Source of the DNA: Spirochaetota bacterium
Lineage (GTDB): Bacteria > Spirochaetota > JAHITG01 > JAFGFC01
Assembly (NCBI GenBank): GCA_016931325.1
Contig: JAFGFC010000051.1
Span: 12,639-76,638, forward strand
DNA length: 64,000 nucleotides
Reading direction: 5' to 3'
Shown: one piece after another, positions 447 to 38,900 of the stretch
Layout: the number at the start of each line of letters is the position of its first letter
Position numbering within the stretch: position 1 is the first letter of the stretch
Position numbers and translations under genes: made by a program
Notes under the pieces: generated by a model
What the model was told of the DNA's origin: nothing
Seen by the model: only the letters and a program-made list of their open reading frames with translations
Databases searched by the model: none

Positions 447-578
447 CTAGAAATTTTTCGAAGAAAAATTTCAGGCCCTGTGAAAATTGAAAATTTTCCA
501 GGATAAAGTCCCTGAAATCCTTTCAGGATTTCCAGGGAGATTTGGTCCCTGGAATTGTCTTTGGACAATTCCTAGGGA
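447..578. repeat. Structured intergenic repeat, family 1, copy 1; rich in TCCAGG/CCTGGA palindromes
   Basis: Shares ordered blocks with 21044-21206: caggccNtgtgaaaat, ggaatttcca, ggataaagtccNtgaaat, ttccagggagatt, ggtccctgga. Contains the inverted repeats ttccagga-taaag-tccctgaa and tccaggga-N8-tccctgga. Confidence 0.5.
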
Positions 579-823
579 TGGATCGTCGAACCTGATTTTT
601 TTTGTCACCTTTAGGCCTTTTCCGGTGTTATACAGGTAGTAGTAAGAGAGGAGGTCAAATACGTCAAGGAGGGGTAGGGATGAATGGGAAAAGATTTATT
701 TCCGTTGAACTGGAAAAGACAGAGGCTCTGGCTCTGCCCTTGCCTTATTTTCTTCTTCGAAATTTTTTCTTGAAAATCTATTTCATTTGGATACCTTTTA
801 TACTGATATTGGCTGTTATTCTT

Positions 824-1393: not shown

Positions 1394-1400
1394 TAAAATT

Positions 1401-3420: not shown

Positions 3421-3431
3421 CAGGTGATTTC

Positions 3432-5048: not shown

Positions 5049-5067
5049 CGATCATACCTATAGCGAA

Positions 5068-17289: not shown

Positions 17290-18841
17290 AAGGGTTCAAA
17301 CCGATCATGGCAAAATATCGCCACAATGTACTGGAAATACAGAAGACAAATCTATATTTTTTCTCTTCACTGAAGGAACCGGCCAGTCCGTTGCCGATCC
17401 TGGATGACCGGGCCAGGGGCCACCAGTCATTAAAGGCGTAGACGAACTGCTTGTCTTTTATGATATGGGAAACATACGGGAGCTCGTTATTTTCCGAACG
17501 GGTTATTAAATCTATATATCGATTCATCTCATCAACATAAAACCTGTACTTTTTTAAGAATGATTCCGCTGCTCTGTTTTCTGATCTGCCCACAGCATAA
17601 TCAGCCAGCATATTGTAATCCAGAGCCATCTGTCCTGTGCCCTCCCACCAGATCATAGGTTGATCCCGCCTCTGGCTGTAGGCCTCTTTAATGGTAAAAT
17701 CAAATCCCCAGAATTTTTCCCCCTGCACCATAACCTCTACCCTGAATTTATCCTCTGCCTGTCTCACCAGTTCTATAGGATCTATGCCCATCCTGTCCAG
17801 GTCTTCAGGCCCGATCCCGCATATGGCCCATGAATTAACATCCAGGGCTTCGAGCGTATCCACAACATACTCCCATTTCCCCTTTACTTTGGTAGGGCCG
17901 TATCCACCCCGGTTAAAGGTTCCCCTCTGGTTCCAGGCTATTCTTTTGAACCAGTTTTGCGTGGCCAACTTTTCTTTCTCGATATCTTTAAAGGAAATAT
18001 CATTCTTTTTCATTATGGCCAGGACCCGGTTGTCTTTCATGTTGACCATGGCCAGACAATTCTTTAAAAAGGCATAATAGTCAATAATGTTCTCAGTGGA
18101 AAATACCTTCTGCCAGTCAGGTCCCCAACCGTATCCCATGCTGGGAGCGCCTCTTTCTCCCTGAGGCAATGTGTAATGCGTAAAATCCCTGGCCCAGTTG
18201 AACATCTTCATCACAAAATCAACAAATAAAAGCGATCGCGTTCTAAAATAATAAAACTGGGCCGCCAGCCCGACCCATATATTAGGACCGATATGGATCC
18301 TGTCCCCGTCAATACCCATAACCAGCTGGTTGTATTTTCCGGGTTTGGTATAAAAATAATGGTCAAACATGGTCACATCATAGGCATTAAAAAGCCCGAG
18401 ACAGTTGTTCTTCCTGAGTGAAAAATTATCCTCGAACAAATGCAGCATGTACTCGGCTTTTTCATAATCCTCCATATCGATCATGGCGATCAAGACCAGG
18501 GCATTGTCATACAAAAAAGCCTGACTGTCAAGGTATCCTTTTTCGGTGCGCATGAGAGGGATCTCAAGGAACCTGACATCTTCGATCCAGTTCGCGGTAC
18601 CGGTAAAACTCTGATAAAGCCCTGTTGTTTTTACCTCTATGGATTGTAAAAATCTTTTCAGCTTTTTTCTTTCATCACTGACACCGGGGAAGACCTTGTG
18701 AGACAAGATCAACAATAACAGGATGATCCAGATTACTTTTTTTGTATAAAGCGTCAGCATGATCTTTTTATTCCCTATCCGTATAATATATTTCATCAAG
18801 ATAGAATACTGATCCCTGGGAGTTATTCTGATAACTGACAA
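17261..18841 (-). CDS. Hypothetical membrane-anchored protein, possibly (alpha/alpha)6 glycosidase-like
   Basis: N-terminal transmembrane segment. Motifs AFLYDNALVLIAM, GYGWGPDW and WWEGTGQ suggest a six-hairpin glycosidase fold. Not firmly assignable. Confidence 0.35.
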   Translation of the reverse strand: MSVIRITPRDQYSILMKYIIRIGNKKIMLTLYTKKVIWIILLLLILSHKVFPGVSDERKKLKRFLQSIEVKTTGLYQSFTGTANWIEDVRFLEIPLMRTEKGYLDSQAFLYDNALVLIAMIDMEDYEKAEYMLHLFEDNFSLRKNNCLGLFNAYDVTMFDHYFYTKPGKYNQLVMGIDGDRIHIGPNIWVGLAAQFYYFRTRSLLFVDFVMKMFNWARDFTHYTLPQGERGAPSMGYGWGPDWQKVFSTENIIDYYAFLKNCLAMVNMKDNRVLAIMKKNDISFKDIEKEKLATQNWFKRIAWNQRGTFNRGGYGPTKVKGKWEYVVDTLEALDVNSWAICGIGPEDLDRMGIDPIELVRQAEDKFRVEVMVQGEKFWGFDFTIKEAYSQRRDQPMIWWEGTGQMALDYNMLADYAVGRSENRAAESFLKKYRFYVDEMNRYIDLITRSENNELPYVSHIIKDKQFVYAFNDWWPLARSSRIGNGLAGSFSEEKKYRFVFCISSTLWRYFAMIGLNPFDATVPRIE

Positions 18842-19451
18842 CCCAGCAGAAGCCGCCTATAATATAGGAAAGGTCAATACCCTTTAATGAGATCTGGTAA
18901 CGTTTCCACTTTTTACTTAAAGTGACAACCATCTCATCGGTACACCCGGAATCAGGATACGGTCCTCTGACACCACCCATGGTAAATCTGACCTCTTCTC
19001 CTCCCTGTTCCCCCCTGGCGTAGAAAACAAGTTTGGTGGCTCCCCTGAGGTCATATCCCTGATGGGGGATAAAGCCCCAGTTATTGGCCGGATTCAACCA
19101 GAAAACCCCGGCCCAGTGTTCTTCGTTCATCTCAGGATCAAAGACAGGGTCATAGACCACTTTAATGCAGCTGATCCCCTGGAAAGGTTTTTGTTTGCAG
19201 TTGCCCCAGAATCGTATGGTCAAATAATCTCCCATCCGGCCTGTCGGAAAATAGTGTACATTACCGATGGAGCCGTAGTTTTTATAGAGATAGAAGGGAA
19301 ATGTAACTTTTTTACCTTTCAGATTCAAGGGAATCTTATTCTCATAAGTTTTATTATTATTATCGCTGTAATCCGGGACATTATAATAAGTAAAAGAAAA
19401 TACCAGTCCCAGAGCCAGAATAATGTATAGTTTATTTCTTCTCGATATCAT
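18768..19451 (-). CDS. Secreted paralog-family protein A (unknown beta-sandwich or CBM-like family)
   Basis: Signal peptide present. Shares FYARGxxGxEVxF, LSKKWKRYxIxL, GGF and YLDEIYY motifs with 19461-20087, 20325-20984 and 32948-33595. Confidence 0.5.
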   Translation of the reverse strand: MISRRNKLYIILALGLVFSFTYYNVPDYSDNNNKTYENKIPLNLKGKKVTFPFYLYKNYGSIGNVHYFPTGRMGDYLTIRFWGNCKQKPFQGISCIKVVYDPVFDPEMNEEHWAGVFWLNPANNWGFIPHQGYDLRGATKLVFYARGEQGGEEVRFTMGGVRGPYPDSGCTDEMVVTLSKKWKRYQISLKGIDLSYIIGGFCWVVSYQNNSQGSVFYLDEIYYTDRE

Positions 19452-19460
19452 CTTATCCCT

Positions 19461-20087
19461 TTATCTCTCGATCTTTATCTCATCAATATAAATGGTGACC
19501 AATTCCTTGCGATACTGTTTATGGTCCATCCATCTCATGGCCAGAGAAAATCCAAGACTGATATGGGTTAGATCCTCTTTATCCAGGAGGATGGTATATT
19601 TTTTCCATTGTCGTGTTAATTTGACCGGCCCATAGAGGATCTCTGTAGAATCAGAGAACGTGCCGTAATTCCCGCCGAATTTAAAAATGACCACTTCATC
19701 TCCCTTCTTTCCCCTGGCATAAAAGGTCAGCTGTCGGGCCCCTGTAAGGTCCAGCCCGCCATCAATATTGCCCCAGTTATAGCTGGGGAAGGTCCAGTTG
19801 ATGCTGATCCAGTTAAATACCGATTGCCGCCTTGTGTTATATTCGAATTTCATGCAGTAATTCCCGGTTTTGGGTTTTTCCGTGCAGAACTGGTTATACT
19901 GAATGCAGAGAACATCACCGCCCCAGCAGGTGGGAGCATAAAATGAACGCTCCGTCCAGATATCACCATCCAGATAAATAACGACAGGATATTTTTGCGG
20001 TTTGTAGGCATAACCATAAAGACTGTTATTTATCAGGCCGACCATGAGAAAAAATATTATAAATACAGGACAGATGCTTCTTCTCAT
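19461..20087 (-). CDS. Secreted paralog-family protein B
   Basis: Signal peptide present. Motifs FYARGKKGDEVVIF, LTRQWKKYTILL and IYIDEI shared with paralogs A, C and D. Confidence 0.5.
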   Translation of the reverse strand: MRRSICPVFIIFFLMVGLINNSLYGYAYKPQKYPVVIYLDGDIWTERSFYAPTCWGGDVLCIQYNQFCTEKPKTGNYCMKFEYNTRRQSVFNWISINWTFPSYNWGNIDGGLDLTGARQLTFYARGKKGDEVVIFKFGGNYGTFSDSTEILYGPVKLTRQWKKYTILLDKEDLTHISLGFSLAMRWMDHKQYRKELVTIYIDEIKIER

Positions 20088-20324: not shown

Positions 20325-20984
20325 TTAATTTAATTCATTATAAGCGGTTCTCTGTGCAGAGAGACTGGTTGATTCTTCATTATTGGAATAATAGACATCA
20401 TCCACATAGAATGTGCAACCATCAGGATTATCCTTGGCATAAAGGACAAATCCAAAACCACCGGCTATATCCTTCAATTCCAAACAACTCAGGTCTATTT
20501 CATATTTTTTCCATTCTTTGGAAAGAACGATCTTTTTACTGGTCTTTGAATCCTTTGGGTTTTGCTGCCTTGTTCTGTTCATGCTGAATTCAACGACCTC
20601 ATTGCCATGCTTTCCCCTGGCATAGAAATATACTTTTTTAGCGGGAGTCAGATCATATCCGCCACGTATGGAGATCCAGTAATTATTGGGATTGGACTGA
20701 AAATACAGACCGGCCCATCCATCACCTTCACCGGCTGCGGTATAGGTGACTCTCAGAGCAGAAGAGCCGGAGCGGGTATTCTTATCCCATCTGTTGTCCA
20801 TTCGGATGTCCCGGATATCTCCCATCCAGCCGCTCGGAATGCCTCTATCCAATTTGCTTTCAGCATTGGAATAGATATAAAATGGGTAACGCAACACCTT
20901 GTAACTCATAAGAAAATCATCATCTTCAGCTAAAAGGATTGATCCCATTGACAAAACAATTAAAATAAGGAGTAGTCTTTTCAT
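20325..20984 (-). CDS. Secreted paralog-family protein C
   Basis: Start at MKRLLLIL with an AAGGAGG ribosome-binding site. Motifs PSGWMGD, YFYARGKHGNEVVEF, LSKEWKKYEIDL and FYVDDVYY. Closest to paralog D. Confidence 0.55.
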   Translation of the reverse strand: MKRLLLILIVLSMGSILLAEDDDFLMSYKVLRYPFYIYSNAESKLDRGIPSGWMGDIRDIRMDNRWDKNTRSGSSALRVTYTAAGEGDGWAGLYFQSNPNNYWISIRGGYDLTPAKKVYFYARGKHGNEVVEFSMNRTRQQNPKDSKTSKKIVLSKEWKKYEIDLSCLELKDIAGGFGFVLYAKDNPDGCTFYVDDVYYSNNEESTSLSAQRTAYNELN

Positions 20985-21043
20985 GATATTTACCTCCTTT
21001 CCCCTTTTCATTAGTAAGGACAATGGTCAGGGAAAAAAGTGCA

Positions 21044-21206
21044 AGAATTTTTTTTAATATTTGAGGATTCAGGCCGTGTGAAAATCAGCCCTCTGGAATT
21101 TCCAAGAGAAATTCCGAGGATAAAGTCCTGGAAATTTCTCTAGAAATTTCACAGGAAGATCTTCCAGGGAGATTCAAGGGGTCCAGGGTTCCTGGACCCC
21201 TTGAAT
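21044..21206. repeat. Structured intergenic repeat, family 1, copy 2; contains a perfect 16-bp-arm hairpin at 21172-21206
   Basis: Collinear sequence blocks with 447-578. attcaaggggtccagg-gtt-cctggaccccttgaat is a perfect inverted repeat. gaaatttct-ct-agaaatttc is also palindromic. Confidence 0.5.
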
Positions 21207-21339
21207 TCTTATTCGAAATAAAGATATCCGTGTTAATCCGCCATGGGGGCCTTTAGGCTCTGGTTACTCTTAAAAAACTTGACTTGGGGCCTTCGGGGCA
21301 ATATTTTAGAGTTTCAAGCCAAGGTATAGGGAGACAATC

Positions 21340-21765
21340 ATGGGTCATCATCATGAAAAGGAAACGGTGATACGGTTTGGTATCTCTATTGAAGAACATT
21401 TATTGGAATCATTCGACCGGTATTTGAAAAAAAAGCATTATAAGAACCGGTCAGAAGCCATAAGGGATCTGATCCGCGACAGGCTTTCTGACGCAAAGAA
21501 AGAATCAGGGGAAGAGAAGACGGTGGCCATTGTCTCGTACCTCTATAACCATCATATTCCCCAGCTAACGGAAAAGATCGTCCATATGCACCATCATTCT
21601 CACATCAAGATCTACTCCACACAGCATATTCATCTTTCCAGGGAATTGTGCCTTGAGATCACGATCGTGGAAGGGGAAATGGCCAGGGTGAAAGATTTCA
21701 GCAACAGGATACAGTCGCTAAAAGGGGTTCAGCATTTGACCGTCAATCACTACTTCTTGACCTAA
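21340..21765 (+). CDS. nikR: Nickel-responsive transcriptional regulator NikR
   Basis: N-terminal RHH (RFGISIEEHLLESFDRYLKKKHYKNRSEAIRDLIRDRL) and C-terminal His-rich metal-binding domain (HMHHHSH...), typical NikR architecture and length (141 aa). Confidence 0.85.
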   Translation: MGHHHEKETVIRFGISIEEHLLESFDRYLKKKHYKNRSEAIRDLIRDRLSDAKKESGEEKTVAIVSYLYNHHIPQLTEKIVHMHHHSHIKIYSTQHIHLSRELCLEITIVEGEMARVKDFSNRIQSLKGVQHLTVNHYFLT

Positions 21766-22286
21766 AATAGATTAGCTTCCTTGAGGATAAAATTGATCAT
21801 CAGATCAAAGTTTAATTTGTCTTTTTTAATCGGCTCGGGGAACGAGGGAAAGCAGGTGATCTTCTCCAGGGCCTTTTTAACTTCCCTATCCAAAATTTCA
21901 AATCCGGAGCTCTTTTTAATCCTGAAATTCAACAGCCTCCCGTCACAGGCCACTGTGAAATTGATAAGGGCTTTGCCCTCCAATTTTCTTTTCCTGGCCA
22001 TAAAAGGGTACTCGAGATTTTTGTATATCTCAGCTCTCAAAACCTCTCTGAAAGCGATAATGGAATTTTTCTCTGCGGATTGTTGCCCCACATCACTTTC
22101 ATCCTCCAGCCTGGTCCTGTCAGACACCTGATTGACAGGTGTAAGAATGACTTCCACGTACTCCGCTTCCTGGGCAGGGTCATGTTTTATTGAACCGGCT
22201 TTGAACAGACCGGGAATTAAAAGGAACACCGCGTGGACCAGCACAGAACAGATCAGACTAATATAAAATATCCGTTTTGTTTTCAT
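21762..22286 (-). CDS. tonB: TonB family energy transducer (C-terminal TonB domain)
   Basis: N-terminal transmembrane segment. C-terminal YPFMARKRKLEGKALINFTVACDGRLLNFRIKKSSGFEILDREVKKAL matches the TonB_C fold motif. Confidence 0.7.
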   Translation of the reverse strand: MKTKRIFYISLICSVLVHAVFLLIPGLFKAGSIKHDPAQEAEYVEVILTPVNQVSDRTRLEDESDVGQQSAEKNSIIAFREVLRAEIYKNLEYPFMARKRKLEGKALINFTVACDGRLLNFRIKKSSGFEILDREVKKALEKITCFPSFPEPIKKDKLNFDLMINFILKEANLF

Positions 22287-22289
22287 GGG

Positions 22290-22892
22290 TTATATTTTTC
22301 TCGCTTTAACCAGAAAATAACCGTTATTAACATACTTTTCAAGCAAAAATCCGGTTTTTTTCAATATGATGTCAAACCAGGATTTATCCGGAATATGATG
22401 CATTCTCATTTCAAAACCAAATTCTCTGTGCATTTTATTGATATGCTCTCTGTTCTGACTGTGTGATATCACAAGAAGACCTTTCTTCTTTAACAGATGA
22501 TATATATTCTTTAAAGTCCGGGTCTTGTTTTCAAAATGAGGAAAACAGTTAAAGCAGATCACCATATCAATTTTCTGTTCCAACTCCACATTTTCTATAT
22601 TGGCAAGAAGACATCGGGAATTAGAAATATGAACCATTTTGTTCTCGGCAAATTTTAGCATCTTTCCAGAGATATCGACCATCCATAAAAACCCGTCCAG
22701 TCCGATATGTTCAAGAATATAAGGAGAAAAATCCCCCTTGCCGCACCCCGCCTCAACAACTTTCATCCCTTTATCAAGCCCGAATTTTTTAACCAGGCCA
22801 CGTATCTTCTCCACTTCTTTTTTTTTATTGACCCAGTCATTCTGGTAGGTTTCAGCCACTGAATCAAAAATCTCTTTAATCGACCTTTGCAT
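22290..22892 (-). CDS. Class I SAM-dependent methyltransferase
   Basis: Motif I VVEAGCGKGDFSPYIL and methyltransferase-fold spacing. Embedded in the metal-uptake operon. Confidence 0.7.
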   Translation of the reverse strand: MQRSIKEIFDSVAETYQNDWVNKKKEVEKIRGLVKKFGLDKGMKVVEAGCGKGDFSPYILEHIGLDGFLWMVDISGKMLKFAENKMVHISNSRCLLANIENVELEQKIDMVICFNCFPHFENKTRTLKNIYHLLKKKGLLVISHSQNREHINKMHREFGFEMRMHHIPDKSWFDIILKKTGFLLEKYVNNGYFLVKARKI

Positions 22893-23682
22893 AAACTCTC
22901 CTTTTTGGTGAAATTAAATAAACGATCAATAAGATAAAAGAAAGGAAAATAGCCACCGTGGCGCTGACCGGCCAGTTGAAAGTAAAAGAAAATATCACGC
23001 CCCCGGCTCCCCCCAGCGAAGCAAAAAAGGAAGATAGAAAAATAAATTTTTTGATGTCATAGGTTATCTGATAGGCGATAGATGGCGGAATAATGATAAG
23101 ACTGAAAAGCAAAAGCCCGCCGATAATATTCAAATTCACCGTTATCACCGCGCCAACAAAAAAAAGTAAAACGTAAAAAAATAACCGGTCATTGATTCCC
23201 AGGGAAGCGGCGATCTCTCTGTTGAACAAGATCGCCACCAGCTCCTTGAAAAAGGCGGCTATAAACACGCCGAGGGCAAAAAGCAGAAAGATCAGGAAAA
23301 TGATATCCAGAGAATCCACCAGAAGGATGTTACCCCATAACAGATCTAGAATAACTCCTTTCTGTGGTAAAAGGCCCATTCCCAAAAATGCTATTCCCAG
23401 AACAAAAGAAAAAAGAATACTGATGGCGATATTGGGGCTGATCCTGCTTTTTTCTGACAGGGGAGGTATAAAAAGTGAGCTCAAAAGAGAAAATCCCAGG
23501 GCCATGACCCTGGATGGGAGCCCCAGGATCATACCCCATATCCCGCCCGCCATGGCCGAGTGTGACAAGGTTACACCTATAAACGGAATATTTAAAAGAA
23601 AAATAAAAACCCCTATGATCCCGCACTGTATTCCGGTTAATATAATAATGAATAAACTTTTATAAAGGATCGAATCAGTCAT
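22876..23682 (-). CDS. Metal ABC transporter permease (ABC-3 / ZnuB-TroCD-like)
   Basis: About 8 transmembrane helices, 268 aa. Pattern typical of ABC-3 permeases. Overlaps neighbours in operon fashion. Confidence 0.75.
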   Translation of the reverse strand: MTDSILYKSLFIIILTGIQCGIIGVFIFLLNIPFIGVTLSHSAMAGGIWGMILGLPSRVMALGFSLLSSLFIPPLSEKSRISPNIAISILFSFVLGIAFLGMGLLPQKGVILDLLWGNILLVDSLDIIFLIFLLFALGVFIAAFFKELVAILFNREIAASLGINDRLFFYVLLFFVGAVITVNLNIIGGLLLFSLIIIPPSIAYQITYDIKKFIFLSSFFASLGGAGGVIFSFTFNWPVSATVAIFLSFILLIVYLISPKRRVYAKVD

Positions 23683-24403
23683 AAATATAACTCAGGAAAT
23701 CTTTTTTTTCCCAGAGCTCCTTTTTTTGCCCCTGAAAAATGACATGGCCGTTCTTTAAAACAACGATCCTGTTGCTGAATTCCGAAATATGGGTTATCAG
23801 GTGGGTCACGAAAAGGACCGTGAGTCTGTGATCGATGTATATCTTTTCCACCATTTTCAAAAATTTTTTATAAGCCTGAATATCAAGATTGACGTTTGGT
23901 TCATCCAGAAAAAGTATCTCAGGTTTCTGGATCAGGACAAAAGCCAGCATCACCTTCTGCCGTTCTCCTCCGGATATCAGGCCAAAAGGTTTATTCAAAA
24001 GATGATGGATCTTGAACTCTTTTTCTACGGAGCGGATAATATCTCTGTCGTTTTTATCAATTCTTTTAAGTATCCCCTTGCCCGAACGACCCATGACAAG
24101 CACGTCCTTGACTAGAATGGGAAAATACGGATCCATATCCAGCCTCTGAGGCATATAGGCTATATTTTTTCTGATCGAACGTATCTTTGACTTTGTATTT
24201 TCCTGATTAACAAAAATCTCGCCCTGCCCGGCTTTATAAAAACCCAGAATTGTTTTCAAAAGGCTTGTCTTTCCTGACCCGTTCGGTCCCAGGATCGTAA
24301 TAAATTCTCCCTTTTTAACATCCAGATCAATATGATTCAATATGGCATGACCATGACCGGAAAGGCAAACATTTTTAACTCTTATCGCATATCCCTGAGC
24401 CAT
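23675..24403 (-). CDS. Metal ABC transporter ATP-binding protein (ZnuC/TroB-like)
   Basis: Walker A GPNGSGKTSLLK, signature LISGGERQ, Walker B ILFLDEP. Confidence 0.85.
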   Translation of the reverse strand: MAQGYAIRVKNVCLSGHGHAILNHIDLDVKKGEFITILGPNGSGKTSLLKTILGFYKAGQGEIFVNQENTKSKIRSIRKNIAYMPQRLDMDPYFPILVKDVLVMGRSGKGILKRIDKNDRDIIRSVEKEFKIHHLLNKPFGLISGGERQKVMLAFVLIQKPEILFLDEPNVNLDIQAYKKFLKMVEKIYIDHRLTVLFVTHLITHISEFSNRIVVLKNGHVIFQGQKKELWEKKDFLSYIYD

Positions 24404-24409
24404 ATTCGG

Positions 24410-25228
24410 TTATTCCTCCAGACCCTTCTTTAACTGTTCCAAATTGCCTGACCAGAGGTGAAGGAACATGGGATCCCTGGAAAAATCAGGAAAGTTGGCA
24501 AATATAATGATTTTTTTGTTTAGTCGTTTTTCAAAAACCAGGGCTGTGGGATGATGGTCCCCTGTTCTATTGCTGATGATATAATCTATCCCTTCTCTTT
24601 TTGAATCCCTTCTGATCTTTTCTATCTGCTTTAATCCTGAACTTTCCAGACCGGCAAAAGTGGCTATCACCTCCAGGCCCAGATACTCGCAGAATCCTTT
24701 TTGAAAGGCGCTGGCTATCACTTTGATACGTTTCTTCTTTATCCTCTCCAGGAAAGAACGTTCTTTTTCAACAGTCTGCTGAATGGTTTTAATCGTTTGT
24801 TCCCGGTTCGTCTTTATTTTCAGGCTATCATCCGGAAAATAACGGCTCAGGATCGTTTCCATCTCTTTTAACGCGCTGAAATAGTTCTCTGGCACTGTAA
24901 GATCAGGACTGGTAATGATATGAATCTTTATCAACGGATTGATCTTTTGTATTTTTGCCACCAAATATTTCTGAAAAGGATGGATCATTAAAAAAGCGGC
25001 CTTTCGGATGGAGAGGGCATCAGAGGGCTTTAGATCAAAATGTCCCGGACACTGGCCCGGCGGCACAAGATTCATGATAGCCAGATCCGGATCCAGATCC
25101 CTGACCAGTGATATGATCATGGTTGTACCGGCTAGAACGATCCTGCCTTGCGGCCGTTCTTTAGAACAGGATAAAATAAAGGCCAGCAAAAGGAACAGAG
25201 TTATATAATTTTTCATTGTTGTTCGCAC
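24410..25228 (-). CDS. Metal-binding periplasmic or lipoprotein substrate-binding protein (TroA/ZnuA cluster A-I)
   Basis: Lipobox-like LSCS. HFDLKPSD...A motif like the HxyxPSP/D motif of ZnuA/TroA substrate-binding proteins. Confidence 0.65.
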   Translation of the reverse strand: MRTTMKNYITLFLLLAFILSCSKERPQGRIVLAGTTMIISLVRDLDPDLAIMNLVPPGQCPGHFDLKPSDALSIRKAAFLMIHPFQKYLVAKIQKINPLIKIHIITSPDLTVPENYFSALKEMETILSRYFPDDSLKIKTNREQTIKTIQQTVEKERSFLERIKKKRIKVIASAFQKGFCEYLGLEVIATFAGLESSGLKQIEKIRRDSKREGIDYIISNRTGDHHPTALVFEKRLNKKIIIFANFPDFSRDPMFLHLWSGNLEQLKKGLEE

Positions 25229-25244
25229 AGGATGACCATCCGTT

Positions 25245-27113
25245 CTAAATATTTAACAGCACGCCTGTTTTCAAGATCAACCCCGGCGCCGGATAACCTG
25301 ATCTTACTAGATATTTTTCATTAAGGATATTTTCCGCATCCAGATAAAAATGCCATTCTGTATTGCTCATGGTTAGGTCATAGTTGACAGAAGAGTTGAG
25401 AACCATATAATCATCCAGTTTTTCTTTTTTTTCATCTGAATCATACCGGTCCCGGGCAAATTCTGCCTCCACTTTCATCGACAGAGGGGAAGTGATTTGA
25501 ATGATCGTATAGGCTTTGCCATTGAACAAGGCCAGGTGGGCTGTTTTTTTGCCTGGATCAAGATATCCCAAAAGCAAGCCGCTTTTTATCGCCGGGATCG
25601 GTTTGACCCAAGCCTCCAGTTCCAGGCCATTTATGATAATCTTGCCTGAATTTTCAAACGAGGGTGGAAAGGGAGGGGGGCCTACCTGCTGTATCAAATT
25701 TTTTCCTGTTATTTGATAATACGATAATTTGTAGAAAAATCGATTATGAATTTCCTTCAGGCCTGTTTCATACTGCCAGTAATCTTCCGGTTCCGTGACA
25801 TTATATTCAGGAGGGTTTATGATAGCCATGCATTCTCTGCCAAATTCAGGTGTCTTATATCCTCTCTGCGCATTGCCATAAAGATACTGATCAGCCCGGA
25901 TATTGACCTGGATCCCACCTGAAGGAATGATGATCTCATCCCATACGTTATTATAAGCGTACCGGATGCCTCCGGATAAAATTACAATATCCAGCTTTTG
26001 ATCCATCAAGGTGTACGCCGCGTAATCATTTTGAATTTTTTTCAATTCCTGATGACCGCCCGCCGGGTGATCATTATATACACCGCCAAACTGCTGCCAG
26101 TCAAATCCAATCTTTGTCTGATTCCCCTTGAATAATTGCACGGTTTCCATTATCCTGAGGCCATAGTCCTCGAAAATATTATTGCTGTCATTAAAAAATT
26201 TATTCAGCCCGGTATCAGCATACAGGATCACTTTGCCTCTTATATGGTCATACTCATGTTCAACCCTGAAATCAAAATCCCTCTGAATGGTTTTACCGGC
26301 AGCGTCATATCGACCCCAGTCAGCATTCGTGGGACCCGGGTTATAAAAGAGGATATCCGCGTAATCGACATTGGCCCGGACATACCAGTTGGCGTTGATC
26401 TCGTATCCTGCTCCCATATGATAATTCTGTTGATAGGAATCAGAATTTTCTCTGCCTCCCTCTGTGGACTTGTAGCCCACAGACAGGTTATAGTCAAAAG
26501 GTCCTGTCTTGAACCGATTGTTTATAAAATAATCCTGAGAGTTGTAACTGCCGTAAGCCAGGCCAATGGCTGTTCTTATACCGTCTTTTCTCATCCGCTT
26601 GGTTCTGATATCAATGACACCACCCACAGCCTGGTTCCCGTGTTCGACTCCTGAGGGTCCTTTTATCACCTGCACGCTTTCAACAGCATCCAAAGACAGC
26701 GTATCAAGCAGAGGATGCCGCCATATCCCCATGCTCTGCGGCCGGTCATCGACAAAGGTCAGCACCCCTGTATTGGGTATCTCCCCCAGGCCGCGGATCT
26801 TGAATACAGACGGATTCTTGGAACCGACCTGGAAACTGACCGGACCTGTCTTGTTAAAATAAATACCGGAAACATCTTTGGTAAGATCAATCACATTATG
26901 CCGGCTGTTATTTTCAATAGTCTGGGAACGAAAGGTCACAACGGATTGACTCGAACGGTTCAAATCAGAAACAGACTCATCTTTCACGACAGGAACAGTC
27001 TCTTTTTTAACCTTGATCTCGCCCAGGTCAATGGTTTCGGATCCTTTCTGAGCCTGGCCGAAGCCAATGAATCCGGCAAGGAATATAAATATTATTGATA
27101 GATGTTTCATCAA
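25245..27113 (-). CDS. TonB-dependent outer-membrane receptor
   Basis: Signal peptide present. Plug-domain motifs (VFKIRGLGEIPNTGVLTFVDDRPQ, GPSGVEHGNQAVGGVIDIRTK) and a long beta-barrel region. Confidence 0.8.
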   Translation of the reverse strand: MMKHLSIIFIFLAGFIGFGQAQKGSETIDLGEIKVKKETVPVVKDESVSDLNRSSQSVVTFRSQTIENNSRHNVIDLTKDVSGIYFNKTGPVSFQVGSKNPSVFKIRGLGEIPNTGVLTFVDDRPQSMGIWRHPLLDTLSLDAVESVQVIKGPSGVEHGNQAVGGVIDIRTKRMRKDGIRTAIGLAYGSYNSQDYFINNRFKTGPFDYNLSVGYKSTEGGRENSDSYQQNYHMGAGYEINANWYVRANVDYADILFYNPGPTNADWGRYDAAGKTIQRDFDFRVEHEYDHIRGKVILYADTGLNKFFNDSNNIFEDYGLRIMETVQLFKGNQTKIGFDWQQFGGVYNDHPAGGHQELKKIQNDYAAYTLMDQKLDIVILSGGIRYAYNNVWDEIIIPSGGIQVNIRADQYLYGNAQRGYKTPEFGRECMAIINPPEYNVTEPEDYWQYETGLKEIHNRFFYKLSYYQITGKNLIQQVGPPPFPPSFENSGKIIINGLELEAWVKPIPAIKSGLLLGYLDPGKKTAHLALFNGKAYTIIQITSPLSMKVEAEFARDRYDSDEKKEKLDDYMVLNSSVNYDLTMSNTEWHFYLDAENILNEKYLVRSGYPAPGLILKTGVLLNI

Positions 27114-27256
27114 TCATAGTCTCCCTTATTTCGTGTTACTTTTTTATAAAAAATATTACTTTATCAGGAAAAGTCAAGTTAAAAGTAATTTAAACAGTTA
27201 TAATATGGATCAATGAAATAAATTGAAGAATGGCAGACTGATTTTATCTTGAAAAC

Positions 27257-28963
27257 TCAGAGGATTAGATTTAAAATACCGCCTACGATCAGCGTGGACA
27301 GGATCATAACCGCTGTGGCTTTTGCCATATCCAGAATACCCAGCTCTTTAACAAGCACGGTAAAGGTAGCGACACAGGGAAAGTACATGGTAAGGATAAC
27401 ACTGGCGATCACCAGCTGCTTGAGGCTCATTCCCAGAGGGGCCAGCATTCCCACAGCCACATCCTTTCTTAAAAAACCGATGACCAGGGCTCCCACTGAC
27501 TCTTTTGGCAATCCGAGCACTCCTTTGATCACCGGCTCACTCAATTTTCCTAAAAAAGAGATCACACCAAGAACATAAAGCATATTGATAATAAATACTC
27601 CTACAATAACATAAGGAACAGCCTCGGATAAAAAACCTTTGATCCGCATCCAGAGCTTTTTTAAAAGTCCTTTCCAGTAAGGGATACGGTAGGGGGGGAT
27701 CTCCAGAAAGATCTCAGGACTTTCACCTTTTATCAACTTGTTCATGATAACGCCAAGGACAAATCCGACTATAAAAAGAGTGAAAAAGACCACGCCTATC
27801 CCTTTAACGCCATATTGCCCCACAAGACCCATTACCATGGCTATCTGGGCGGTACAGGGCACACAGATGGCCATGACCGTGGCCGCGATAAACCGTTCCT
27901 TCTTGGTTTCCAGAATACGCGTGGCCAGGGCGCCTGGGACATTACAGCCCAGGCCCAGGATCATGGGGATGATGGAAAGCCCGTGTAATCCCAGACGATG
28001 CATAAAATTATCAACCAGCACAGCCAGCCGCGGCAGATATCCGGAATCTTCCAGGAAGGATAGTATAAGATAAAAAGCAAAAATATAGGGTAATACCATG
28101 GCAAAGGGGACAAAAAGACCTGTTGTTAAAAGCCCGAGAGATTCAACAAAGTCAATGCGACCGTTGATCAGCCTTCCTATCAGGATGTCATGGATCATAC
28201 CCGGTTTTAAAAGAGACGATAATTTCAGGATCAGGGGCCCATAAATTTTTTCAAAAAACGGTTCAAATAAATAGGTGATGAGCGATTCCCCGATAAATCG
28301 TATAACAGCAAAGGAAAGTATAAGAACAAGAATAGAAAGCGGGAGACCGGTCATAGGTTTAATGGTAAGATCCAGGACCCTTTCCCAAACGGTATGGTGC
28401 CGATGGCTTATCCTCTGGACATTCTGAATAATATGACCCACTTTGCTCCATCTCTGGTTTTCTCTGAAGGTATAGGATCTGGCTTTGGCCTGGTCTATTC
28501 TTGAAAAAAGGTTTTTTATCCCTTCGCCGGTCAGAGCGCAGGTCGTAACGACCGGCACTCCGATTATTTTCTCAAGTCGATCAACATTAATTGAAATACC
28601 AATATGTTTCACTTCATCCCAAAAGTTTAAAACAACAATAACGGGTTTACCTGATTTTAAAAGCTGCAAAGTTAAATTTAAATTCCTTTCCAGGTTCGTG
28701 GCATCCAGCACATTAATGACCAGGTCCGATGAATGAAAGATCTTAACAGCGACTTCCTCAGCCCGGTTTGTCGCCTTCAGGGAATATGTTCCGGGAGCAT
28801 CGATCAGCTCTGACTTTTCATTCTCTTTTCTGATATACCCCTTCGTGTACTCTACTGTTGTTCCTGTGTAATTGGAAGCGATAACATTCACACCGGTGAG
28901 CCGGGAAAAAATTACGCTCTTCCCTACATTAGGATTTCCCATTAAGACAATTCGTTTCATCAT
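27257..28963 (-). CDS. feoB: Ferrous iron transporter FeoB (G-protein domain plus membrane domain)
   Basis: GNPNVGKSVIFSRLTG (G1 motif), NYTGTTVE, followed by a polytopic membrane domain. Confidence 0.9.
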   Translation of the reverse strand: MMKRIVLMGNPNVGKSVIFSRLTGVNVIASNYTGTTVEYTKGYIRKENEKSELIDAPGTYSLKATNRAEEVAVKIFHSSDLVINVLDATNLERNLNLTLQLLKSGKPVIVVLNFWDEVKHIGISINVDRLEKIIGVPVVTTCALTGEGIKNLFSRIDQAKARSYTFRENQRWSKVGHIIQNVQRISHRHHTVWERVLDLTIKPMTGLPLSILVLILSFAVIRFIGESLITYLFEPFFEKIYGPLILKLSSLLKPGMIHDILIGRLINGRIDFVESLGLLTTGLFVPFAMVLPYIFAFYLILSFLEDSGYLPRLAVLVDNFMHRLGLHGLSIIPMILGLGCNVPGALATRILETKKERFIAATVMAICVPCTAQIAMVMGLVGQYGVKGIGVVFFTLFIVGFVLGVIMNKLIKGESPEIFLEIPPYRIPYWKGLLKKLWMRIKGFLSEAVPYVIVGVFIINMLYVLGVISFLGKLSEPVIKGVLGLPKESVGALVIGFLRKDVAVGMLAPLGMSLKQLVIASVILTMYFPCVATFTVLVKELGILDMAKATAVMILSTLIVGGILNLIL

Positions 28964-29199
28964 TTTCTACCTGTTTCTTTCACGAAAATCCTTCTGGCCA
29001 TCCCAAAACCCAGGGCCACCTGACAGGCACCGATCTTGATACAAACCGGGCCTTTCATGAATTGAGAACTTTTCTTTTCTATTACAACCCCCTTTCTTAT
29101 TCCCAGGGCTTCCAATTTATTTATGAAACCATGACCGCCATCCAACCCGGTTATCAGCCCTTTTTCACCTTCCTTAAGATCAATTAGAGTTTTCATCAT
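28960..29199 (-). CDS. feoA: FeoA family protein
   Basis: SH3-like FeoA pattern (LKEGEKGLITGLDGG...LGIRKGVVIEKK...GPVCIKIGACQVAL). Start at MMKTLIDL; the ORF extends further into the upstream gene. Confidence 0.7.
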   Translation of the reverse strand: MMKTLIDLKEGEKGLITGLDGGHGFINKLEALGIRKGVVIEKKSSQFMKGPVCIKIGACQVALGFGMARRIFVKETGRK

Positions 29200-29200
29200 T

Positions 29201-29635
29201 TCACTCCTTTTTCTTCTGCAGATATCGTTTGAACTCGTTCTTGACTGGGGTTTTCTTTCTCTCAAAAGATTCCATAAAAGAGACAAATTCGACCAGCCTT
29301 TCAAAGGTCTTTTCATGGATGTAGTGCTCGATCCTGCAGGCATCTTCCCTGGCTATCTTTTCATCAACACGCAGGATCTCTTTTAAGAATTTTATCAATA
29401 TTTTATGCTTTTTATATACCTGCCTGGCTTTTCTGACACCCGATGGCGTGAGTTCAATATACCCGTAGTGTTCGTGATTCACGTATCCTTTTTCTGACAG
29501 CACTTTTAACGCCCCTATAACAGAGGAGGTTTTCACGTTCATGGTAGAGGTCAGATCCTTGACCCTTACCACTTTGCGCTTGGTCTGTTCCATAAAGATG
29601 GTTTCAATATAATCTTCCAGGCTGGGTGTCAGCAT
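29201..29635 (-). CDS. DtxR/MntR-family metal-dependent transcriptional repressor
   Basis: LEDYIETIF...VRVKDLTSTMNVKTSSVIGALKVLSEKGYV...ACRIEHYI matches the DtxR helix-turn-helix and metal-site pattern. 144 aa, no SH3 domain. Confidence 0.8.
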   Translation of the reverse strand: MLTPSLEDYIETIFMEQTKRKVVRVKDLTSTMNVKTSSVIGALKVLSEKGYVNHEHYGYIELTPSGVRKARQVYKKHKILIKFLKEILRVDEKIAREDACRIEHYIHEKTFERLVEFVSFMESFERKKTPVKNEFKRYLQKKKE

Positions 29636-32174: not shown

Positions 32175-32855
32175 ATGAGCACGTACCTGATCATCAATAT
32201 CATTATTATCGCTTTCCCTCTCACCTTCAGTTTCTGGCCGCGTATCCGTTACTACAAGAAATGGCCATTTTTATTTTTATCCATTCTCATCACCGGCCCC
32301 ATTTATATCTTCTGGGACGTTCTGGTCACCCTCAGGGGTGATTGGAGTTTCAACAAATCTCATGTGGGGTCGTTCAACCTCTTTCACCTGCCCGTGGAAG
32401 AAATACTTTTTTTTATCACAGCCCCCTACAGCTGTATCTTTATCTATGAATCCTTAAATACGTTTATTAAAGATAAAAAAGTAGCATATAACCCGTACAT
32501 CTATTACGGGGTTATCGTGCTTTTGCTCGGCCTGGCTTTTTTTTATCGCGCTCAGGATTATACCCTGCTGGCTTTGCTCTCCTGCGCCTTTTTTTTAATA
32601 ACAGCCCTCATCATCCGGCCGGCCATGCTCTCTTCCAGGCTTTACTGGGGTTATATTCTGATCAGCTTTGTCGCTTTTTTCATCTTTAATTATGTTTTAA
32701 CCTCTTATCCCGTGGTCATCTATAATCCCAAAGCCATTTGGGGATTAAGGATCACTACAATACCGCTGGAGGATTTCTTTTATAATTATTCCATGCTTTC
32801 TTTTTATCTCTTCTTCTATCAGTTCTTTCAGAAAAACAAAAAAAAGGCAGGATAA
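32175..32855 (+). CDS. Lycopene cyclase domain protein (CrtYcd-type, two fused repeats)
   Basis: 226-aa polytopic membrane protein with the hLPVEEILFF motif characteristic of the heterodimeric-type lycopene cyclase domain. Confidence 0.55.
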   Translation: MSTYLIINIIIIAFPLTFSFWPRIRYYKKWPFLFLSILITGPIYIFWDVLVTLRGDWSFNKSHVGSFNLFHLPVEEILFFITAPYSCIFIYESLNTFIKDKKVAYNPYIYYGVIVLLLGLAFFYRAQDYTLLALLSCAFFLITALIIRPAMLSSRLYWGYILISFVAFFIFNYVLTSYPVVIYNPKAIWGLRITTIPLEDFFYNYSMLSFYLFFYQFFQKNKKKAG

Positions 32856-32947
32856 AATACCAGGCCTTACGGGCGGTATCTATCCTGCCCCGGGCTCAAG
32901 GGGTTGAATGGTTAAATTCAACCCTTGAGCGCATCGAGGGGACAATT

Positions 32948-33595: not shown

Positions 33596-33675
33596 GGCTT
33601 TTTACCTCCTTTTCCCTTTTCATTAGTAAGGACAATGAAAAGATAAAAAAGTGCAAGAATTTTTTAGAAAAAATC

Positions 33676-33837
33676 AACCACTGAAGGCTCTGAAAACAGA
33701 GCGAAGCCTGCCCGAAGGGTGGAGCAAAGCCTCCCGTAGGGACTGAAAATTCATATTATAATTTGAAAAAATATGAAATCTGCTGTTACTTGAAAATCTT
33801 ATTAATCTCTGTGAATTCAGTGAAGATCAGTGGTTTT
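33676..33837. repeat. MITE-like repeat, family 2 (termini aaccactgaa ... cagtggtt)
   Basis: Terminal inverted repeats plus internal ctcccgtagggactgaa and gtgaattcag blocks, shared with 58237-58283 and 63371-63480. Confidence 0.45.
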
Positions 33838-36800: not shown

Positions 36801-38900
36801 CCTCCCGATAACAGAACTGATGGATAACAATTTCGCCTCTTTTTCCGGAAGGTCCTTGATCCGTAAAAGGAGCATATCCACAATATTTGAACTGACAGGC
36901 AATTTATTGATCTTGGACCAGTTCTCTTTCCAGGACCCTTCTTCCCAGATAAGGGCTTTTCTTTCTACCAGCTCTCTCAATATCGTAATGGCAAAAAAGG
37001 GATTCCCTTTTGTTTTATCAATAAGATAACGGGCAATTTTATCAGCCTTGGATTCACGCTCCCCGAGGACCTCGGCAGCGAGCCTTCGCATACGGCCAAA
37101 ATTAAAATGGCTCAGCTTGATCTCCTCCAGGGGATAATGCATGGCCTTGGACTCTTTTTTTATCCTGTGAATACTATGATCCCGGCCGATCTCATCATCC
37201 CTGTAGGTAGCCAGAAGAAAAAGATTGTTCGTTCTTGACTTTCTTAAAAGCTCTTCTATGAGGCTTAAACTTCCCTCATCAGCCCACTGTATATCATCAA
37301 TGAAAAGAACAACATTCTGCTTCCTGCCGGACAGGGAGGTCAAGAACTTGACATATTCCATTAGATATCTCTTGTTCTCTTTTTCCGGGTCATCAAGCGG
37401 CGTGATCTCGCTCACCTGGCCCAGAATTTCGCTCATATTGGAATTGAATTTCAAAATGATCCCGGTCAGATCCCCGAATATCTTCTTTAACCGTTTCCCT
37501 TCCTGTTTTTTTAACTCCTGGCCTTCCCGTTTTATCCTCCGGATATAATCATCGGTAATATCTTTGAACGGGTGGAACGGCATCTTGTTTTCCTGATTAA
37601 AACACCGTCCCATAAAAAACATGCCTCCCTGCTCGTAGACATAACCCCTTAATTCCTCAACCAGCCGGCTTTTCCCGATACCGGCTTCTCCGGCAATAAA
37701 ACAGAGGCTTCCGGAATGAGCTTTGGCTTTATCATAAAGTTCTTTAAGATCATTGAATTCTTTAGCCCGCCCCACCAGCCTGGACCTGTAAGTCAGCTTT
37801 TTTTTCTGATCCATCTCCCCGATAACGAATGTCTTTTCCCCTTTTTCGAACCGGGCGATATCATGCAAGAATCCTATGGCACTCTGATAACGGATCTCCG
37901 GTTCTTTATCCAGAAGCTTCATGATCATATCTTCCAGGGCTTTTGGTATATTGACATTAACCTTACCGGGTCTGACAGGAATAGCCGCTACCTGCTTGTG
38001 CAGGATCTGGCTTATCTCTTTTCCCACAAAGGGCATCTCCCCTGTTAAAAGTCGGTAAAAGATTATTCCCAGAGAATAAAGGTCACTTCTCTCATCCACC
38101 GGTTTGTTGATAATCCCTGTGGCTTCCGGAGACATATAACCAAACGTTCCTATTATCTCGGCCATTTCTTTGATCTGCCTCAGTTCCATCACGTGGGCCA
38201 GGCCAAAGTCCAAAATCTTTATCTTTTTTGCCTGATCAATGATCACGTTACCCGGCTTGAGGTCGCGGTGCAGGATATTACGGCTGTGAACATAATCAAG
38301 GGCCTCGGTTATCTGTTTTATGATCCTGACCGATTCCTTTATGGTGAATCTTTTTCCTTTCAGTAAAAGATCATAAAGGCTGTCTCCCTTCAACAATTCC
38401 ATCACGATATAGGGGATATTATCATACTCGCCCAAGCCAAATATTTTAACAATACCGGGATGATTAAATTTGGAGACGATCTCGACTTCTTTTTTAAATC
38501 TGATCTTATCCTCCAAAAAAGAAGAGATCCTGTTCTTTTTAAGGAATTTTATAGCCACTTCCTTTTTGGCCTTGTTATCAAAAGCTCTGTAGACAGAGGC
38601 CATTCCCCCTTCACCCAGTTTCGCTTTGATCTTATACTGTCCACTTATGATTGTTGATGATTTCAGTTCCAAGAACTCTCCCCTGACCTTTACCTCGTCT
38701 GTATTAGTATCGCCTAAAATGATTCTCTTCTTAAGGAGCAAAAGGTTATTTTCAATTATACTAAATAAATTACCAAGGGCAAGCAATTTCTGGCCACCAA
38801 TGCAAGAGAAACCACCCTTAGGAATCGCTATGCGATTCCTAAGGGTGGTTTCTCTTGTAAAAGTTAATTGACTTTGGCATTTTTTACCTGTATATTTCAT
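33855..38900 (-). CDS. Multidomain signalling protein: Ser/Thr kinase – STAND (AAA_16) NTPase – TPR repeats – GAF – GGDEF
   Basis: Kinase motifs (LGEGGMASVY, AIK, HRDLKPGNVII, DFGLA, SPE). P-loop GEAGIGKSRLVEEL. Long TPR-like region. GAF domain (VGAERGILLLY...GVIYLDNR). GGDEF domain (RYGGEEFAVIIPETG, KALYKAKEKGRNCV). The N-terminal 100 aa and the exact start are uncertain. Confidence 0.8.
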   Translation of the reverse strand: MKYTGKKCQSQLTFTRETTLRNRIAIPKGGFSCIGGQKLLALGNLFSIIENNLLLLKKRIILGDTNTDEVKVRGEFLELKSSTIISGQYKIKAKLGEGGMASVYRAFDNKAKKEVAIKFLKKNRISSFLEDKIRFKKEVEIVSKFNHPGIVKIFGLGEYDNIPYIVMELLKGDSLYDLLLKGKRFTIKESVRIIKQITEALDYVHSRNILHRDLKPGNVIIDQAKKIKILDFGLAHVMELRQIKEMAEIIGTFGYMSPEATGIINKPVDERSDLYSLGIIFYRLLTGEMPFVGKEISQILHKQVAAIPVRPGKVNVNIPKALEDMIMKLLDKEPEIRYQSAIGFLHDIARFEKGEKTFVIGEMDQKKKLTYRSRLVGRAKEFNDLKELYDKAKAHSGSLCFIAGEAGIGKSRLVEELRGYVYEQGGMFFMGRCFNQENKMPFHPFKDITDDYIRRIKREGQELKKQEGKRLKKIFGDLTGIILKFNSNMSEILGQVSEITPLDDPEKENKRYLMEYVKFLTSLSGRKQNVVLFIDDIQWADEGSLSLIEELLRKSRTNNLFLLATYRDDEIGRDHSIHRIKKESKAMHYPLEEIKLSHFNFGRMRRLAAEVLGERESKADKIARYLIDKTKGNPFFAITILRELVERKALIWEEGSWKENWSKINKLPVSSNIVDMLLLRIKDLPEKEAKLLSISSVIGREFQIDMIQDLMKESRDILVHLIDSTIEKQLLEKSSRKGALMFVHDRVRDAFYARMTKKERVKYHLMIGTALEERNKQNIEEVIFDLAHHFIEGGDKHRSLQYGIRAADRAKENYANEEAIRYYNIVLNILEKEKTKDKRWMQAKEGLIEVYLSAGKSNEVINLCKEILPLKRNPFEKAKLYIHMGQAHLNMGSWVESEEVIARGLSLLGEKVPRRKSEVMMALVREAAVHFFHSFLNRYYLKKQVKHKDPQDITIIVTHHSLDWMYILTDISKFIHSVLRGLHIAQSRLGRSKELAASIGAYASLLMSIPMFKGAEKYHFKALEIRRELGDERELAQSLQFIGYYYQFKGEYAKSRDYLGQAAEKYRLVEDIWNLGMTLQGIGIDYLYSGDFREAVGHLLEYLKISEEIKDDFGITSCLGYLIEVYLEQGEIDTAEKALRRGYSIVQAKKLPFPLLGMHIGMSILSYEKGNYADAIKYAQLAREINETHDFLKNYTANLYFVLADAHIENYKKKKKKDRGHLKLIRSLCRDALKKAAPWVTHYMSALRSYAKYHILINKRKKAEILFFKSMELARKLGRKFELGKTLFEMGYFYEAGNKIESAHHYWQQAFKVFQEIGSREYIKRCASVLGLDLKVQVAKESPKERLQIEREMTTVLETSRYFSSILDLEELLEKIIEKAIQLVGAERGILLLYPVEEKKDKILEVKVAKNVKDVELEGELFHTSSGIINRVEQGKKPLIVDDATLDKDFKDEASIVRFGIKSALSLPIMGREEMLGVIYLDNRLVSGVFTEEDLRVLEVISRQAGISIENAILYKKAITDGLTELYTHNFFENFLSKSVELATRYKNKLSLLMLDIDHFKNFNDKYGHRAGDLVLKKIALIIKKNIRKSDSAARYGGEEFAVIIPETGLDGAKILAEKLRKIIESNRVSYRMGKKDIQLRITASIGVAELEPGEEWQELVVRSDKALYKAKEKGRNCVQT
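38803..38857. repeat. Perfect 26-bp-arm inverted repeat with a 3-nt loop (caagagaaaccacccttaggaatcgc-tat-gcgattcctaagggtggtttctcttg)
   Basis: Read directly. Lies within the first ~100 nt of the annotated kinase ORF, 45-100 nt from the divergent gene at 38946. Confidence 0.7.

Follow-up and report, generated by a model that had tools for sequence, protein, structure and literature searches.

We found that two intergenic loci in a 64,000-nucleotide stretch of a Spirochaetota bacterium genome (contig JAFGFC010000051.1; the whole stretch is called the window below) carry related arrays of bulged hairpins, one upstream of a gene for an extracytoplasmic function (ECF) sigma factor (copy 1) and one upstream of nikR (copy 2). 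Within these arrays the sequence of the hairpins has drifted while their stems have stayed perfectly base paired. We put it at about an even chance that both loci carry a dispersed, non-coding repeat of compound palindromic structure, which works at the level of DNA and resembles the repetitive extragenic palindromes (REPs) and bacterial interspersed mosaic elements (BIMEs) of other bacteria, or the REP doublets forming hairpins (REPINs). The original prediction, made from the letters of the window, had described two related copies in the same orientation ahead of the ECF sigma gene and nikR, and their coordinates and sequences are as it described them.

The two copies lie 20.6 kb apart. A local alignment of the two intergenic regions scored 69, compared with a mean of 27.6 (standard deviation, 4.6) and a maximum of 47.5 for 500 dinucleotide shuffles, so the similarity reported originally is real. 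Three blocks are shared exactly: block A (TTCAGGCCNTGTGAAAAT, 18 nt, at 470 to 487 and 21068 to 21085), block B (AGGATAAAGTCC, 12 nt, at 500 to 511 and 21117 to 21128), and block C (TTCCAGGGAGATT, 13 nt, at 530 to 542 and 21162 to 21174). A further block matches with one mismatch (GGTCCCTGGA versus GGTTCCTGGA), and an additional common 9-mer, CCTTTAGGC, is found at 608 and 21250. Order and orientation of these blocks are the same in both copies. The collinear set that had been listed before thus stands, with two corrections: ggataaagtccNtgaaat is present with one further mismatch, and ggaatttcca has only an approximate match in copy 1, outside the collinear order. The description of the element as packed with TCCAGG/CCTGGA also holds, with 7 occurrences in the 281 nt of both copies compared to 0.34 expected from the density in the window (~20-fold). 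Given their unrelated flanks and a separation of 20.6 kb, the pair represents a dispersed repeat and not a segmental duplication or the single local duplication that had been named as a refuting outcome. Coding potential is absent in both copies, and the indels between them are not all multiples of 3. No third copy was found in the window by BLAST, word counts, a regular expression for the unit, an architecture scan, or a unit profile.

Both arrays are assembled from one hairpin design. The unit is a 26- to 33-nt hairpin with a foot of CCCTG/CAGGG, a 1-nt bulge, an A/T-rich upper stem (GAAAWTT.. / ..AAWTTTC), and a loop of 3 to 6 nt (Table 1). The shared blocks are junctions between these hairpin units, not free-standing motifs or operators; block A in copy 1, for example, is the junction of hairpin units HP1 and HP2. 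HP1, HP2, and Ua have a 5'-arm bulge and loops of GAA, GAA, and CAAGA; HP3, HP4, and Ub have a 3'-arm bulge and loops of TTC, TTTG, and a pyrimidine-rich sequence. Because bulge arm and loop purine-richness, two independent marks, agree in all units, we assign the unit orders + + − − to copy 1 and + − to copy 2. Each copy aligns with its own reverse complement around an ATAAAG linker, and copy 2 exceeds copy 1 in length on either side of this linker by similar amounts (19 and 15 nt). In copy 1, the left end (CCCTAGAAATT) agrees with the reverse complement of the right end (AATTCCTAGGG) at 10 of 11 positions. These ends are the outer arms of HP1 and HP4, and since CTAGGG of HP4 mirrors CCCTAG of HP1, copy 1 has ends like terminal inverted repeats (TIRs). 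The ends of copy 2 are unlike these and match each other over AAGAATT / AATTCTT only.

Oriented units are 57 to 75% identical to one another, yet all 76 stem pairs of the six units are Watson-Crick pairs, with no G-U pair and no mismatch. Changes in the upper stem are always mirrored on the opposite arm (AAATCCT/AGGATTT, GGAATTGTC/GACAATTCC, and GAAATTTTTC/GAAAAATTTC), and in Ua one foot position has switched from G-C to C-G. Perfect Watson-Crick pairing despite this divergence indicates that pairing is maintained rather than sequence, and equally for both strands. The only unit with mismatches is the outer unit of copy 2, which is split by the inner doublet: its arms at 21074 to 21086 and 21158 to 21169 pair across Ua-Ub with two mismatched positions. 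When we scanned for the architecture without regard to sequence (inner Watson-Crick stem of at least 7 bp, 1-nt bulge, outer stem of at least 3 bp, loop of 3 to 6 nt), we obtained 8 hairpins in the 64 kb, 6 of them units of the two copies, while shuffled windows gave ~0.6. The same scan of 472 kb of unrelated DNA returned ~12 hairpins outside one TA-microsatellite locus, and these were never clustered. Tandem Repeats Finder misses the array, because the units are too diverged. At the right of copy 2, the perfect hairpin Uc is unrelated in sequence to the units except for its central CCAGG/CCTGG, and a weak T-tract, TCTTATTC, follows it on the + strand. This 16-bp-arm hairpin and the other dyads named in the earlier description are real.

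Table 1. Positions in the window of the two repeat copies, their parts, and the neighboring genes and promoter-like site
Feature	Position	Strand or orientation	Description
Copy 1	445-579		135-nt compound palindromic element; four bulged hairpin units, + + ATAAAG − −
HP1	446-475	+	CCT-A-GAAATTTTTC GAA GAAAAATTTC-AGG; 5'-arm bulge; 13 Watson-Crick pairs
HP2	477-502	+	CCTG-T-GAAAATT GAA AATTTTC-CAGG; 5'-arm bulge; 11 Watson-Crick pairs
Linker ATAAAG, copy 1	503-508		Symmetry center; core of block B AGGATAAAGTCC
HP3	509-538	−	Bulge C532 on 3' arm; loop TTC (GAA on minus strand); 13 Watson-Crick pairs
HP4	546-578	−	Bulge T on 3' arm; 14 Watson-Crick pairs
Copy 2	21062-21207		146 nt; + ATAAAG − doublet enclosed by a split fifth unit, then perfect hairpin Uc
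Block A in copy 2	21068-21086	+	Remnant 3'-arm end TTCAGG, then 5' arm CCGTGTGAAAATC (21074-21086) of the split, HP2-like outer unit
Ua	21090-21119	+	CCTC-T-GGAATTTC CAAGA GAAATTCC-GAGG; 5'-arm bulge; 12 Watson-Crick pairs
Linker ATAAAG, copy 2	21120-21125		Identical to copy 1 linker
Ub	21126-21156	−	Bulge A on 3' arm; 13 Watson-Crick pairs
Split outer unit, 3' arm	21158-21169	+	GATCTTCCAGGG; overlaps block C (21162-21174)
Uc	21171-21207 (palindrome 21172-21206)		Perfect; 16-bp arms, loop GTT
RND permease gene	8-364		Multidrug-type resistance-nodulation-division (RND) permease; 5' of copy 1
ECF-type sigma factor gene	ORF 602-1393; likely ATG 680 (680-1393)	+	Sigma70_r2/r4 and NCBIfam sigma70-ECF matches; strong Shine-Dalgarno before ATG
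219-aa secreted-protein gene	20325-20984	−	Diverges from nikR across the copy 2 spacer
Promoter-like site for nikR	21279-21307	+	TTGACT, 17 nt, TATTTT; only good site right of copy 2 (promoter scan)
nikR	21340-21765	+	NikR_C and RHH_1 matches; downstream of copy 2

These features of the units bear on whether the arrays could be operators or upstream activating modules, in which a dimeric protein would bind TTCCAGG/CCTGGAA or GAAATTTC dyads and co-regulate the ECF sigma gene, nikR, and possibly the 219-aa-protein gene. There are many dyads with a recurring foot, TCCAGG/CCTGGA is ~20-fold enriched, and both copies are upstream of regulator-gene promoters, with the copy 2 array placed at ~−70 to −210 relative to the predicted nikR promoter, beside the conserved leader of the divergent gene. 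However, the spacing of the feet varies with the 26- to 33-nt units and every unit has an asymmetric 1-nt bulge, which misfits a dimer site of fixed spacing, and the upper stems differ between units yet stay complementary, which is a signature of base pairing and not of half-site recognition. No further site was found in the window, including at the promoters of the metal-uptake operon, where NikR targets would be expected, and the neighbors of copy 1 (an RND pump and PorV-like genes) have no evident nickel link. We therefore regard protein-binding modules as a very unlikely account of the two loci. By eye, neither copy matched a sigma-54 promoter, a NikR operator of the GTATGA-N16-TCATAC type, or a site for IHF.

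Both copies fold far better than their shuffled sequences (z = −6.5 for each with RNA parameters, and −7.4 and −6.7 with DNA parameters), and they rank 2nd and 3rd by structure among all 140-nt windows of the 64 kb. Both strands of the copies fold equally well. Each element can be folded either as serial hairpins or as a single long hairpin: for Ua-ATAAAG-Ub, two local hairpins and one long hairpin have nearly the same energy (−29.7 versus −29.4 kcal/mol), while serial hairpins are the more stable form for HP2-ATAAAG-HP3 (−26.6 versus −20.4 kcal/mol) and for the whole of copy 1 (−58.3 versus −48.9 kcal/mol).

Folding of this strength raises the possibility of a structured RNA, either a small RNA with its own promoter or a long leader of the downstream regulator, in which the hairpins would act in RNA and Uc would serve as a terminator or attenuator in copy 2. 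Such an RNA would fit the z-scores obtained with RNA parameters and the like orientation of both copies relative to the downstream + strand gene. In addition, block A holds TGTGAAAAT in both copies, which resembles an extended −10 (TGnTAnAAT), and Uc is very stable (~−30 kcal/mol) and is followed by TCTTATTC on the + strand only. In contrast, we found no fold that the two copies share in register: the RNAalifold consensus of their alignment was −15 kcal/mol, compared to ~−58 and ~−73 kcal/mol for comparable single folds of copies 1 and 2. The lack of any G-U pair among the 76 stem pairs and the equal folding of both strands weigh against an RNA, and since unit orientation flips inside the element, one transcript would present two hairpin types. 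Copy 1 has no terminator equivalent to Uc. The promoter scan found no promoter-like site within or ahead of copy 1, and the predicted nikR promoter lies 3' of copy 2, so copy 2 falls outside the predicted nikR transcript. A search of the whole window against Rfam at the gathering threshold gave no match, and at permissive E-values the two loci matched only sub-threshold generic hairpin models (such as microRNA and psbJ). On balance, we judge a structured RNA to be unlikely. Two particular RNA candidates were ruled out: a type III toxin-antitoxin repeat array, since inverted units do not fit its direct repeats and no ToxN-like gene is present, and a CsrB-like GGA-loop sponge, because the frequent GGA motifs sit in stems and not in loops.

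The window is ordinary chromosome and also contains mreBCD, genes for PBP2 and trehalose-phosphate synthase, rodA, icd, feoAB, a gene for a DtxR-like repressor, and a metal-uptake operon; it has no tRNA or tmRNA gene. Copy 1 begins 81 nt past the RND permease stop codon and ends 101 nt short of the ECF sigma ATG (680), and its neighbors also include PorV-like genes. Ahead of it are two hairpins that share the arm GGTCRAATCC, one overlapping the permease stop codon (334 to 366) and the other 30 nt on (397 to 428); this arm does not occur elsewhere in the window at 0 mismatches. A Logan contig from the same sample (L080, SRR13394437) covers 552 to 5053 of the window and breaks inside HP4. Such a break may reflect a repeat or strain-level variation, but neighboring contigs are short too, so it is non-diagnostic. 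Read from ATG 680, as in the NCBI annotation (237 aa), the ECF sigma factor has a 48-residue N-terminal extension (680 to 823) with a hydrophobic, membrane-like segment, IYFIWIPFILILAVIL, which is unusual for a sigma factor.

Copy 2 occupies the divergent spacer between the gene for the 219-aa secreted protein and nikR. To its left, 20989 to 21053 is 91% identical to 33601 to 33665, the leader of a paralogous gene, which has no element; the similarity does not resume beyond it. This 65-nt stretch includes the Shine-Dalgarno sequence and precedes genes for paralogous secreted proteins of 215 to 219 aa that have no Pfam match, whose coding sequences are ~72% identical in their best stretch and whose products are 47% identical. 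The high identity of the leaders could reflect a conserved leader or promoter, or gene conversion. A 35-nt repeat shared with open reading frames (ORFs) 18768 to 19451 and 19461 to 20087 suggests two more paralogues. On the other side of nikR is a metal-homeostasis neighborhood (21762 to 29635), with an operon convergent with nikR (TonB, an S-adenosylmethionine-dependent methyltransferase, an ABC-3 permease, an ABC ATPase, a ZnuA-like binding protein, and a TonB-dependent receptor), followed by FeoB, FeoA, and the DtxR-family repressor.

We also observed other palindromes and small repeats in the window. The most stable structure of all is a perfect palindrome at 38803 to 38857 (26-bp arms, loop TAT, −51 kcal/mol), between a Ser/Thr-kinase gene on the minus strand and a tetratricopeptide repeat (TPR) gene; it lies 11 nt before a TTGACT-17-TATATT site that was read by eye. 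The listed kinase ORF (start 38900) runs through this palindrome, so its true start is probably further downstream. A convergent spacer at 32846 to 32930 contains two strong hairpins, the second of which (32894 to 32930) has a unit-like bulged architecture and the 9-mer TCAAGGGGT in common with the palindrome Uc in copy 2. Another small dispersed repeat occupies two intergenic sites (33683 to 33747 and 58239 to 58275), with GAGCRAAGCCTSCCCGWAGGG present as 1.9 tandem copies at 33699 to 33741 and as an inverted copy, 88% complementary, inside a hairpin at 58246 to 58271. Finally, TGCACCCTTGCGGGTACTGA is directly repeated without mismatch (two 20-nt copies, 43773 to 43811) at the very start of ORF 43761 to 45074, which matches the isocitrate/isopropylmalate dehydrogenase family.

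Outside the window, the collections were searched with exact patterns or BLAST, and they hold no close relative of the lineage. The nearest NikR and ECF sigma homologues have ~51% amino-acid identity, which likewise indicates that close relatives are lacking. In a distant relative (L071), the region around the ECF-sigma homologue (51% identity) has the same downstream gene order and no array, with one terminator-like hairpin upstream instead. In ~80 kb of contigs from other samples that carry homologues of the 219-aa protein (L070 and L073 to L079) there were no arrays; blastn-short with both copies found nothing in L070 to L077, and the bulged-hairpin scan found nothing clustered. Among individual pattern matches, one labeled "delta proteobacterium" (L003) was high in GC and unrelated, and a TTTCCAGGG...CCCTGGAAA dyad downstream of block A in another (L059/L052) gave an alignment score within background.

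Several results weigh against a REP/BIME- or REPIN-like repeat. Copy number is a defining property of REPs and of miniature inverted-repeat transposable elements (MITEs), and only two copies are seen in the 64 kb; another 6.6 kb of the same genome, on a different contig (L069), has none, so that the window and this contig together hold two arrays, made up of six intact units plus a split one. In 185,579 GTDB representative genomes, the combined pattern of blocks A and B had 5 matches, and the block A pattern had 62 in JGI metagenomes, both at chance level and, for the latter, none homologous to the window; with exact patterns or BLAST, IMG/VR, the PLSDB plasmids, and the INPHARED phages gave no match. 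No match to transposase, REP-associated tyrosine transposase (RAYT), or IS200-like families was found among the ~55 ORFs of the window, and neither copy is bounded by a direct repeat that would mark a target-site duplication. In the described REP superfamilies, one end of the unit bears an unpaired tag, GTAG or CGTC (PMC3733652), whereas GTAG, CTAC, and GACG are absent from both copies and a lone CGTC at 584 is outside the units. REPs within REPIN populations show 94 to 98% conservation, with more than 90% identity in Pseudomonas fluorescens SBW25 (PMC3337134), compared to 57 to 75% for the units here. REPs also lie mostly between unidirectional or convergent genes (PMC3733652), whereas copy 2 is located between divergent genes.

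Some of these results (two copies in 64 kb, highly diverged units, no target-site duplication, and no transposase in the window) would be expected if nothing here were mobile, and the loci were old paralogous spacers or products of palindrome-generating mutation, such as the correction of quasi-palindromes by template switching, with no dedicated enzyme and no function. The unrelated perfect palindromes at 38803 to 38857, 32894 to 32930, 334 to 366, and 397 to 428 also suggest that this genome tolerates or generates palindromes. However, the two loci have exact collinear blocks of 18, 12, and 13 nt and an identical ATAAAG between unrelated flanks, which requires that the whole element descend from a common ancestor, and the specific unit design common to both copies is hard to obtain by a generic process. 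We consider a non-mobile origin distinctly unlikely.

The REP/BIME- or REPIN-like reading is the one that we favor. Of the three options raised originally, a REP- or MITE-like element gains from the oriented bulged units, the symmetry around ATAAAG, and the wholly Watson-Crick stems, while an operator module and a structured RNA are weakened. In this model, the relevant structure would form where DNA is single-stranded or extruded, such as on the lagging-strand template. The DNA hairpin would then be a substrate for a hairpin-recognizing enzyme (a RAYT or an IS200-type HUH transposase) or for template-switch repair, and this enzyme or repair process would both spread the element and keep its arms perfectly complementary. 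The element would have landed, or would persist, in tolerant spacers, after an efflux-pump gene in one case and between divergent promoters in the other. Its position upstream of the ECF sigma gene and nikR is probably incidental: beyond position, we found nothing to uphold the proposed link to two regulator genes, and the array is absent both from the ECF-sigma locus of the distant relative and from 33601 to 33665. As plausible side effects, for instance, the pump transcript might gain an RNA hairpin in its 3' end, or the DNA between the divergent promoters might be prone to form cruciforms. We treat as a long shot the bolder proposal of an active hairpin-transposon family, not described before, in a deep-branching uncultured lineage. 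Its mobile form would be an untagged, bulge-marked unit-ATAAAG-unit doublet that inserts into the loops of pre-existing units, as the nesting in copy 2 suggests, and is moved by an unrecognized HUH or other single-stranded-DNA enzyme. The same low probability applies to a shared cis-acting leader with its own extended −10 that would couple the expression of the ECF sigma factor and NikR.

If the element is REPIN-like, it extends hairpin-based miniature repeats to an uncultured lineage without described ones. It would be a bacterial repeat of a fairly ordinary type in a lineage that has not been studied, and it would bear on no long-standing open question unless it were shown to move or to regulate. 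It is a clean example of drifting sequence with perfectly Watson-Crick stems, which argues for maintenance at the DNA level, and it cautions annotators that such arrays should not be taken for operators or small RNAs of the adjacent regulators.

Known systems share parts of this design. Small MITEs, such as the Correia elements of Neisseria and the RUP and BOX elements of pneumococci, are non-coding intergenic sequences of 100 to 160 nt with strong secondary structure and inverted-repeat ends; BOX elements are modular, and small MITEs can adjoin promoters and alter expression. The present element is like them in size, structure, modularity, and the TIR-like ends of copy 1 (CCCTAGAAATT ... AATTCCTAGGG). 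It differs in having neither a target-site duplication nor a related full-length insertion sequence (IS) and in that its copies differ by internal symmetric indels, not by point divergence at fixed length. Recognition by hairpin structure with extrahelical bases is known for the attC sites of integrons. For the subterminal hairpins of IS200/IS605 elements, the enzyme likewise recognizes structure, including bulged bases in single-stranded DNA, rather than sequence (PMC3333891, PMC6006769). The loci described here differ from both systems in having no adjoining tnpA/tnpB or integrase gene, no cassettes, and no R'/R'' core sites.

The closest parallels are the REPINs and REP-BIMEs of Pseudomonas and Enterobacteria, which are mobilized by RAYT/TnpA-REP transposases of the Y1 HUH type. 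Beyond the points weighed above, the element departs from them in its unit order of + + − −, which is not a simple alternation, in its A/T-rich composition, in its host, an uncultured metagenome-assembled genome, and in the absence of a RAYT from the window. Its likenesses are nevertheless of several kinds. REP units are likewise imperfect palindromes of 20 to 40 nt and extragenic (PMC3337134, PMC3116915, PMC3733652, PMC3333891). REPINs are inverted REP doublets with spacers that conserve only their hairpin, they occur in tandem arrangements, and long perfect palindromes arise as by-products (PMC3337134, PMC3733652). In the same way, HP2-ATAAAG-HP3 and Ua-ATAAAG-Ub are inverted doublets around a spacer that can be folded as a long hairpin, the variable parts keep their complementarity and not their sequence, the units form tandem or higher-order clusters, and long perfect palindromes lie nearby. 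Judged from its sequence, the element would work like a REP/REPIN cluster, and we file it under this general kind rather than in a described family.

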